Assembly (NCBI GenBank): GCA_963851105.1
Contig: CAWKNP010000012.1
Span: forward strand, 9,444 to 73,443
Origin: an uncultured Actinomycetota bacterium
GTDB lineage: Bacteria > Actinomycetota > Acidimicrobiia > Acidimicrobiales > Palsa-688
DNA length: 64,000 bases
Reading direction: 5' to 3'
Part shown: positions 5,239 through 5,615 of the stretch, piece by piece
Layout of the letters: each line of letters starts with the position of its first letter
Numbering within the stretch: the stretch's first letter is position 1
Program-made: the position numbers and the translations under genes
The notes under the pieces: model-generated
Database searches by the model: none
What the model saw: the letters and a program-made list of their open reading frames with translations, nothing else
What the model was told of the DNA's origin: nothing

Positions 5239-5615
5239 GGCGGTGGCGGTGGCGGTGGCGGTGGCGGTGGCGGTGGCGGTGGCGGTGGCGGTGGCGGTGG
5301 CGGTGGCGGTGGTGGTCGTGGTCGAGGCGTGACGGTGGGGTCGCGGGTGATGGCTAGTGGCGCGGGGGTGGTCGTATTGGCGGGGGTGGTCGTGGTGGCG
5401 GGGGTGGTCGTGGTGGCGGGGTTGGTCGTGGTGAGGGTGACGGCGGTGGCGGAGGTGGTGGTGGTAGAGGTCGAGGGGCGGTGGCAATGATGGTCGTGGT
5501 CGTGGTCGTGGTCGTGGTCGTGGTCGTGGTCGTGGTCGTGGTCGTGGTTGCCTTGGTCGTGGTCGTGGTTGTCTTGGTCGTGGTCGTGGTCGTGGTGGAG
5601 GGGATGGTGCGGGCG
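5239..5615. repeat. G/T-rich microsatellite tract: (GGCGGT)~12 at 5239-5313; 18-mer CGGGGGTGGTCGTGGTGG x4 at 5362-5433; (GTCGTG)n at 5491-5615
   Basis: Direct reading of the sequence. Every overlapping ORF encodes only homopolymeric or dipeptide low-complexity protein (poly-G, poly-V, poly-PR, poly-HD, poly-T). Confidence 0.85.

Follow-up and report, generated by a model that had tools for sequence, protein, structure and literature searches.

A strand-asymmetric repeat tract of an uncultured actinobacterium is probably a non-coding, hypervariable backbone locus of small tRNA-Ile integrative elements

Introduction

Why should several hundred nucleotides of strand-asymmetric simple repeats stand between a restriction-modification (R-M) system and the excision and integration genes of a mobile element? 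The question is raised by a 64,000-nt stretch of contig CAWKNP010000012.1 (assembly GCA_963851105.1) from an uncultured Actinomycetota bacterium of the order Acidimicrobiales, hereafter called the window. A sequence-only reading had placed the tract in a 1.1-kb region between the R-M system and a module headed by an excisionase gene (xis). This placement is correct: the tract sits in a divergent spacer that opens at the methylase start on the left (ATG 4851, minus strand) and closes at a xis-like gene of the helix-turn-helix (HTH) family HTH_17 on the right; roughly 385 nt separate its left end from the methylase ATG, and about as many separate its right end from the start of xis. The same reading had listed as candidate explanations a slipped-strand contingency locus, a G-rich secondary structure and the decayed low-complexity linker of a former gene. 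We consider a fourth answer likely, namely that the tract is a non-coding, hypervariable variable-number tandem repeat (VNTR) that changes by slippage and belongs to the backbone of small elements integrated at tRNA-Ile in Acidimicrobiia-type bacteria. Below, we describe the repeats and their homologues, then the element that carries them, and finally weigh the competing explanations.

Results

Repeat layers and composition of the tract

The asymmetric tract covers ~470 nt (5190-5660, plus strand) and is composed of G 0.56, C 0.15, T 0.23 and A 0.06. Its plus strand, which is the xis-sense strand, is G/T-rich, and the methylase-sense strand is C/A-rich. Inside this wider tract lies the microsatellite block proper (5237-5596), whose location had been given exactly, as both the sequence and Tandem Repeats Finder (TRF) confirm; its parts are listed in Table 1. 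Twelve GGCGGT units are perfect (5239-5310). The GGTCGT array runs as nine units, GGTTGCCTT, two units, GGTTGTCTT and three units, giving 14 perfect units, so that an earlier count of more than 20 can be reached only by including partial units or by taking both hexamers together. The accompanying remark that the same hexamer encodes the poly-Thr tail of PstP proved accurate, since a PP2C-type open reading frame (ORF; 50300..51580, minus strand) ends in T15 encoded in this way.

The tract had been called unusual, and it is indeed exceptional for this sequence. The longest run of period-6 identity measures 76 nt, against a mean of 14.6 and a maximum of 17 in 200 dinucleotide-matched simulations of the window, and no composition-matched simulation approached the repeat lengths of the tract. 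G+T over 5237-5600 amounts to 0.819, whereas the window averages 0.498 (sd 0.053), a distance of six standard deviations, and reaches at most 0.646 elsewhere; the GC skew is +0.58 and the AT skew -0.68.

Homologous tracts in related elements

Our comparison included full tracts from the window and from four related loci (L012, L013, L019 and L023), as well as partial tracts from L014 and L020-L022. L012 and L013, with methylases 97% and 92% identical to that of the window, have the same int-xis-spacer-methylase layout. The contig of L014 (methylase 88% identical) ends within the tract, and those of L020, L021 and L022 begin inside it. L019 contains a complete tract of 560 nt, and in L023 the homologous region lies beside a different cargo, a C5 methylase with a NERD protein. 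Wherever a relative shows the region (L012, L013, L019 and L023), a homologous tract is found at this very position. As in other intergenic VNTRs, TRF finds head-to-tail repeats in non-coding DNA, and alignment A1, together with the unit counts, shows copy-number polymorphism at an orthologous position; the lengths of the tract in five loci range over 350-560 nt. Composition is the constant feature: all five full tracts have G 0.56-0.57 and C 0.14-0.17, whatever their internal repeats.

Unit numbers differ among the related assemblies. GGCGGT is present as 12 units in the window, eight in L012 and four plus two in L013, and the main GGTCGT run has nine units in the window, six in L012 (arranged there as six, two and three) and none in L013. 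The sequence-only reading would have been contradicted by identical counts inside a conserved gene; instead, counts vary and no frame is conserved. The window and L012 are separated by two indels of ~24 nt each, one equal to four GGCGGT units and the other to about four GGTCGT-equivalents including an interruption. Substitutions between them number 1 in the 364 nt of the tract versus 13 in the 765 nt of flanking spacer (Fisher p 0.045), a difference that fits a presumed recent homogenising expansion.

Beneath the microsatellites there are traces of a longer unit. In L023, TRF detects a clean 50-nt unit (4.0 copies, 95% match), and L019 contains degenerate units of 45-58 nt. An nhmmer search with the L023 unit matched the window at 5330-5351 (E 1e-4), and the profile of this unit finds unit cores in the window (5330-5351 and 5439-5456), L012, L013 and L019. 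The longest exact words shared by the window tract with L019 and with L023 are overlapping 21-mers that have the core GTGACGGTGGGGTCGCGG in common; the word shared with L023 is GTGACGGTGGGGTCGCGGGTG, and the composition-matched null reached a maximum of 18-19. One or two copies of the core occur in the window and three to six in L013, L019 and L023. Spacings between units (45, 48, 50, 56 and 58 nt) are neither regular nor helically phased. To judge from these matches, the microsatellites are a late layer over an older array of ~50-bp units, which is a conserved part of the mobile-element family and had been overlooked before.

These layers allow us to propose a scenario for the origin of the tract. 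It lies between the control region of the xis-orf110-int module and the presumed cargo slot of the element, which a Type II R-M system fills here, and would have started as G-rich units of ~50 bp arrayed in tandem and sharing the core GTGACGGTGGGGTCGCGG. In the lineage of the window, the sub-motifs GGCGGT, GGTCGT and the 18-mer would then have been amplified by replication slippage or unequal recombination, of which we infer slippage to be the driving mechanism, and would have become near-perfect microsatellites filling most of the tract. Gain and loss of units would still go on between close relatives.

Coding status

The sequence-only reading had found no credible coding frame here and had described the translations as homopolymers. 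Our data agree that the tract is non-coding. Long minus-strand ORFs across the tract (239-241 aa) translate to runs of HD, T, P, TA or RP; no tract-crossing ORF has a Pfam match, and a search of 4000-9000 with E values up to 1 gave no Rfam match in the spacer. The frame of the 240-codon minus-strand ORF of the window (5010..5729) is cut off at 55-118 codons in L013 and at 2-10 in L019, and no frame is open across the tract in all homologues. In L023, the 50-nt period is not a multiple of three, and the fused ORF proposed by the gene caller reads the units in three frames. The flanks of the spacer carry indels of 1, 2, 4 and 7 nt, and the phase of GC content at third codon positions (GC3) flips inside the tract.

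Conserved elements on both sides of the tract

To the right of the tract, toward xis, there are a 10-bp hairpin or palindrome (arms 5687-5696 and 5702-5711) followed by an invariant box, and then two short direct repeats (Table 1). The hairpin reads GCAGCTCACG / CGAAA / CGTGTGCTGC, with one mismatch in the window copy. In alignment A4, 98% of the cells are paired, three pairs are compensatory, and six loci display four versions of the stem; it could be an RNA or single-stranded DNA hairpin, for instance oriT-like (resembling an origin of transfer) or an I-shaped terminator. Both AATGTCACC repeats are kept in L012, L013 and L022; L023 has ATGTCCCC in both places, a parallel change, and L019 has lost one copy. 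They are likely a protein-binding site, to judge from this pattern. We regard the cluster of hairpin, box and repeats as the best candidate in the spacer for a regulatory or transfer-related site.

On the methylase side, homology to methylase loci in other contexts (L015-L018) stops at 5084-5090, which delimits a 235-nt upstream block kept in seven loci with unrelated upstream neighbours. The block holds an invariant TAT[A/G]AT, a small inverted repeat CGAAC-N4-GTTCG and AGGTGG. The -10-like element and the ribosome-binding site (RBS) of the methylase are inside it, and it is also present in homologues that have no tract. RNAalifold indicates weak covariation. The block may be a regulatory leader of this R-M family, in which a C-protein gene is absent.

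The element that carries the tract

The coordinates of all the features discussed are summarized in Table 1.

Table 1. Features of the repeat tract and of the element that surrounds it (positions within the window).
Feature	Position	Strand	Evidence or remark
Probable partner restriction endonuclease	2191..3141	-	PADLOC REase_II E 7e-9
Type II N6-adenine methylase (Eco57I-like)	3160..4851	-	Pfam PF07669, PF02384; PADLOC MTase_II 660 bits
Conserved non-coding methylase upstream block	4852..5086	-	boundary of R-M cargo module
(GGCGGT)n microsatellite	5237..5316	+	TRF: period 6, 13.3 copies, 98% match
Putative remnant of ancestral ~50-nt unit with conserved core GTGACGGTGGGGTCGCGGGTG	5322..5351	+	
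18-mer GCGGGGGTGGTCGTGGTG, four copies	5362..5433	+	TRF: period 18, 4.0 copies, 94% match
Second degenerate putative unit remnant (GAGGGTGACGGCGGTGGCGGAGGT...)	5434..5490	+	weak nhmmer match 5439-5456; segment also in L012
(GGTCGT)n microsatellite with two 9-nt interruptions	5491..5596	+	TRF period 6/12
10-bp hairpin/palindrome, then invariant box TAGGACACGT	5687..5721	.	
Two direct repeats AATGTCACC, 12-bp period, candidate protein-binding site	5774..5794	+	upstream of xis
Excisionase-family HTH_17 gene (xis-like)	5981..6205	+	Pfam PF12728, TIGR01764
Conserved 110-aa ORF (orf110) between xis and int	6189..6521	+	homologues 77-85% identical
Tyrosine integrase (int)	6518..7660	+	Pfam PF00589, PF22022, PF02899
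attR: duplicated 3' part of tRNA-Ile(gat) plus 63 nt	7718..7829	+	95.5% identical to L012 12692-12802

A partial duplication of tRNA-Ile(gat) lies downstream of the integrase gene (attR), where Rfam matches a tRNA at 7695-7764 and ARAGORN calls none. In L012, the intact tRNA-Ile(gat) is found in the 12692-12802 region, at the opposite end of the element. This arrangement indicates that the host of the tract is an element of roughly 9.6 kb integrated at tRNA-Ile, the left end of which is just outside the window. A second tRNA-Ile and a tRNA-Arg(cct) are situated just inside the element of L012, beside the intact tRNA-Ile (12215-12829).

The methylase of the window is 100% identical to P0001, and the endonuclease gene is co-linear with the methylase gene in L012-L018. 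Look-ups of the integrase and methylase products of the window gave no record. Relatives of the xis-like gene are called with a 74-aa product. One orf110 homologue carries PF05225 (HTH_psq), and the window copy gave no Pfam match; orf110 overlaps the ends of xis and int and encodes three S(Q/E)IET repeats and a C-terminal HTH-like segment. The closest relatives of the integrase come from metagenome-assembled genomes (MAGs) of Acidimicrobiaceae/Acidimicrobiales. Two cargo proteins, of 785 aa (partly outside the window) and 311 aa (988-1923), have no Pfam, NCBIfam or PADLOC match, and family scans of the proteins of this element recognised neither a replication initiator nor a relaxase. Relatives of the R-M or xis modules adjoin genes for TrwC/TraI-type relaxase-helicases (L016/L017, L023 and L024/L025), which makes the wider family look like integrative mobilisable or conjugative elements, as far as gene content can tell. 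In L023, this pair of HTH_17 and orf110 genes precedes a TrwC relaxase instead of an integrase.

Outside the close relatives, the tract disappears. Integrase relatives on genome contigs (L001-L011, 63-83% identity) have other cargo, none of them has the tract, and they thus carry no information on unit numbers; the distant methylase loci L015-L018 are homologous only up to ~5086 and lack it; so do the distant xis loci L024/L025, where a TrwC relaxase gene is divergent from xis. An exact 24-mer of the right flank had no match in metagenome or viral contigs, and blastn of 4700-6600 versus plasmids and phages gave at most a 68-nt methylase match. In viral contigs, scans for the integrase and the hairpin-box found nothing, and the scan for the core motif found five unrelated matches. 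The core-motif scan of metagenome contigs yielded at least 120 matches; among the matches listed, one belongs to the family (L137, the contig of L019), and the others are chance matches in coding DNA, e.g., in Tat signal peptides.

The divergence between the window and L012 is a mosaic: it amounts to 1.3-4.5% over 2191-7829 (R-M, tract, xis, int and att) and to 0.1-0.3% outside this segment (1-2190 and 7830-9000). The homology of L013 covers exactly 2191-7829, with other genes to the left. Such a pattern suggests modular replacement of the R-M/xis/int segment by recombination. We rejected the idea of a recombination hotspot at the tract, since the boundaries of divergence between the window and L012 are at ~2190 and ~7830 and not at the tract.

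Other repeats in the window

A second strand-asymmetric low-complexity block, C-rich on the plus strand and with periods of 24, 39, 57 and 78 nt, is located at 34987-36600 and includes the lowest G+T of the window (0.354 near 36075). By eye, it sits between the N- and C-terminal parts of a MBOAT-type-looking ORF, which are in different frames (33770..36469 and 34039..37032). Very long tandem repeats, with a 324-nt unit in 14.3 copies and a 354-nt unit in 3.3 copies, occupy 57774-63994 and are probably part of a giant, repetitive surface protein that continues beyond the end of the window.

Discussion

The length variation of the tract beside a methylase gene invites the idea of a phase-variation switch, in which the number of units would turn the R-M methylase or xis/int on and off by slipped-strand mispairing. 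The tract does adjoin the methylase, unit numbers do differ between close strains (in single assemblies without read support), and methylase phase variation driven by simple sequence repeats (SSRs) is well known in other phyla. Its geometry is wrong for a switch, however: the units of 6 and 18 nt fall outside ORFs, core promoter and 5' leader alike, with ~385 nt to the start codon on each side, and the promoter-like block of the methylase is shared with homologues that have no tract. Units of 6, 18 or 50 nt that are untranslated and so distant from both starts can shift neither a reading frame nor the spacing of a core promoter. Moreover, SSRs with six-nucleotide units are not counted among the drivers of phase-variable expression in H. 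influenzae (PMC2651432). We therefore find a contingency role, as put forward by the sequence-only reading, very improbable. The decayed linker that it also put forward deserves slightly less credit still; in our formulation, this would be a coding or recently decayed linker rich in Thr, Pro and His-Asp in a minus-strand gene starting at ATG 5729 (MARRVLAA...). Such a gene would agree with the 240-codon ORF spanning the whole tract, with a homologous ATG in L023 that opens an ORF of 322 codons (fused by the gene caller to the C5 methylase) and with the periods of the window repeats, which are multiples of three. Nevertheless, C/A-rich DNA is free of stops by composition alone, the frame ends early in L013 and L019, the supposed N-terminus coincides with the hairpin and its compensatory stem changes, and the 50-nt period of L023, the flank indels that are not multiples of three, the GC3 flips and the lack of a Pfam match all speak against it. 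To judge from the sequences compared, the tract is neither a methylase phase switch nor a gene remnant. Least credible of all is that the assembler created or inflated the repeats. Four related short-read contigs terminate inside the tract and L012 has obvious indel errors, but homologous tracts with flanks conserved on both sides recur at this position in five or more independent assemblies, made from different samples with different pipelines, which excludes an assembly artefact as the origin of the tract.

Two further proposals, which assign a function to the older array, are harder to set aside. It is possible, though we would not bet on it, that the array is iteron-like, with the core GTGACGGTGGGGTCGCGG bound by the HTH_17 xis-like protein or by the HTH_psq-like orf110 product; together with the hairpin, an AT-rich segment and the 12-bp repeats it would then form a control region or an origin of replication or transfer. 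This idea can coexist with the VNTR explanation. Across lineages with flanks that are ~70% identical, no part of the units is better conserved than the core; it is repeated three to six times in L013, L019 and L023, the neighbouring hairpin has compensatory changes and the direct repeats evolve in parallel, two small HTH proteins are encoded alongside, and relatives carry TrwC/TraI relaxases. On the other side, the window and L012 retain one or two recognisable cores in a tract that is mostly plain microsatellite, the spacing is irregular (45-58 nt) and out of helical phase, family scans of the element recognised no initiator or relaxase, and neither the TrwC-linked xis copy of L023 nor the loci L024/L025 have the array. 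Somewhat less probable, in our opinion, is a composition-dependent element limiting transcription across the junction of cargo and backbone. Leftward transcription would yield ~470 nt of C-rich, G-poor, unstructured RNA that might load Rho (rut-like) and attenuate transcription into the cargo slot, and rightward transcription would leave a G-rich non-template strand favouring R-loops or G-quadruplexes (G4). The minus strand does have the traits of a rut region, in which a transcript of 80 nt or more should be much richer in C than in G and weakly structured: C is 0.56 and G 0.15 over ~470 nt, and the predicted RNA has next to no structure (-20.4 kcal/mol for 381 nt, z +2.4). The ratio of the two bases stays at 3.3-4.1 over 350-560 nt in all five tracts despite the turnover of repeats, microsatellite expansions keep this composition, and two lineages that differ in cargo both have a methylase gene on the downstream side, as read in the C-rich sense. 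Canonical G4 motifs (four runs of at least three G, loops of 1-7 or 1-12 nt) number one or two in L013, L019 and L023, but none occurs in the window or L012. For the window copy, the case for a G4 as the G-rich structure suggested by the sequence-only reading is weak: the G4Hunter mean of the window tract is 1.07 against a reference score of above about 1.5, which 10% of the 25-nt windows exceed, mainly in the 18-mer block. Furthermore, the flanking genes diverge, so that none of the known transcripts runs into the tract, and the scan of 4700-6100 revealed no promoter; downstream of the tract, the methylase is served by a conserved promoter-like block of its own; and slippage of pre-existing motifs would conserve composition without selection. 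The strong plus-strand fold (-131 kcal/mol) depends on two lineage-specific arrays and is not conserved, and we rejected this long RNA hairpin, in which a GGCGGU arm pairs with a GGUCGU arm, as a functional structure.

A broader version of these ideas is that array, covarying hairpin and 12-bp repeats make up a functional, as yet undescribed module marking the boundary of the cargo slot. It would act through the core motif (HTH proteins, an origin-like or oriT-like role), through strand asymmetry (Rho loading or insulation by R-loops) or through both, and microsatellite expansion would be tolerated as long as composition is preserved. Two different methylase cargos abut the C-rich side of the tract. 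We hold such a module to be possible but rather unlikely.

Returning to the VNTR explanation, we read the microsatellite layer as functionally neutral turnover and give the underlying array about an even chance of having some role, which would be as much an inference as slippage is. If it has one, the array would persist through its core motif, a candidate protein-binding site, through the asymmetry of G over C, or through both; the asymmetry would act via the unstructured C-rich RNA in the leftward direction or via the R-loop- or G4-prone strand in the rightward one. Several points weigh against our interpretation. A tract of 350-560 nt with constant composition and a conserved core suggests a selected function, and the words "neutral turnover" may understate its role. 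The consensus scan of 4700-6100 found no promoter or terminator. The unit counts were each taken from one metagenome assembly, with no support from reads, and L012 resembles a long-read assembly with 1-nt indel errors, its endonuclease gene and a response-regulator gene being split, so that some of the difference in length may be technical. The tract is evidently hard to assemble, as four short-read contigs are broken within it. Finally, distant relatives that share the xis-orf110-int backbone (L024/L025; L001-L005) have no tract, and it is thus not essential to the backbone.

Recognising that a striking microsatellite beside an R-M system is not a phase switch averts a wrong annotation. The VNTR itself is of a known kind; the family of elements that carries it is undescribed. 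The comparison defines this small family of tRNA-Ile integrative elements in uncultured Acidimicrobiia, with exchangeable defence cargo. For work with metagenomes, the tract offers a length-polymorphic marker for strain typing and accounts for the breaking of short-read contigs of the element at this place. Should the array prove functional, it would be one of the rare modules of mobile elements in which composition and a short core, and not the sequence as a whole, are what is conserved.

Comparison with known systems

The phasevarions of Haemophilus, Neisseria, Helicobacter and Campylobacter likewise have simple repeats beside a DNA methylase gene, with lengths that differ between strains. 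Unlike the tract described here, which is ~385 nt upstream and outside the conserved promoter block, their repeats are found within an ORF (with a unit that is not a multiple of three) or in a promoter spacer.

Plasmid and integrative conjugative element (ICE) origins with iterons, and the accessory repeats of oriT, resemble our locus: in each case, a mobile element has a repeated core with a hairpin, an AT-rich stretch and genes for small HTH proteins close by. The differences are the irregular spacing, the one or two cores of the window copy and the lack of an identified initiator or relaxase. Rut regions and G-rich tracts forming R-loops or G4, e.g., the Neisseria pilE G4 and the immunoglobulin switch regions, are comparable in that one strand would give a long unstructured transcript with C above G and the other would be a G-rich, repeat-built non-template strand. 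In our case, the flanking genes are divergent and the window copy has no canonical G4.

Further counterparts of the tract are the mycobacterial interspersed repetitive unit and exact tandem repeat (MIRU/ETR) loci of Mycobacterium, which are intergenic VNTRs or minisatellites of actinobacteria with copy-number polymorphism among strains and no demonstrated function. Both consist of tandem repeats of tens of bp in a non-coding spacer of a high-GC actinobacterium, with variable copy number and no demonstrated function. The tract differs in its location in the backbone of a mobile element, in its composition (G 56%, C 15%) and in the secondary layer of hexamer and 18-mer microsatellites. The likeness concerns the kind of locus, and we claim no relationship of sequence.

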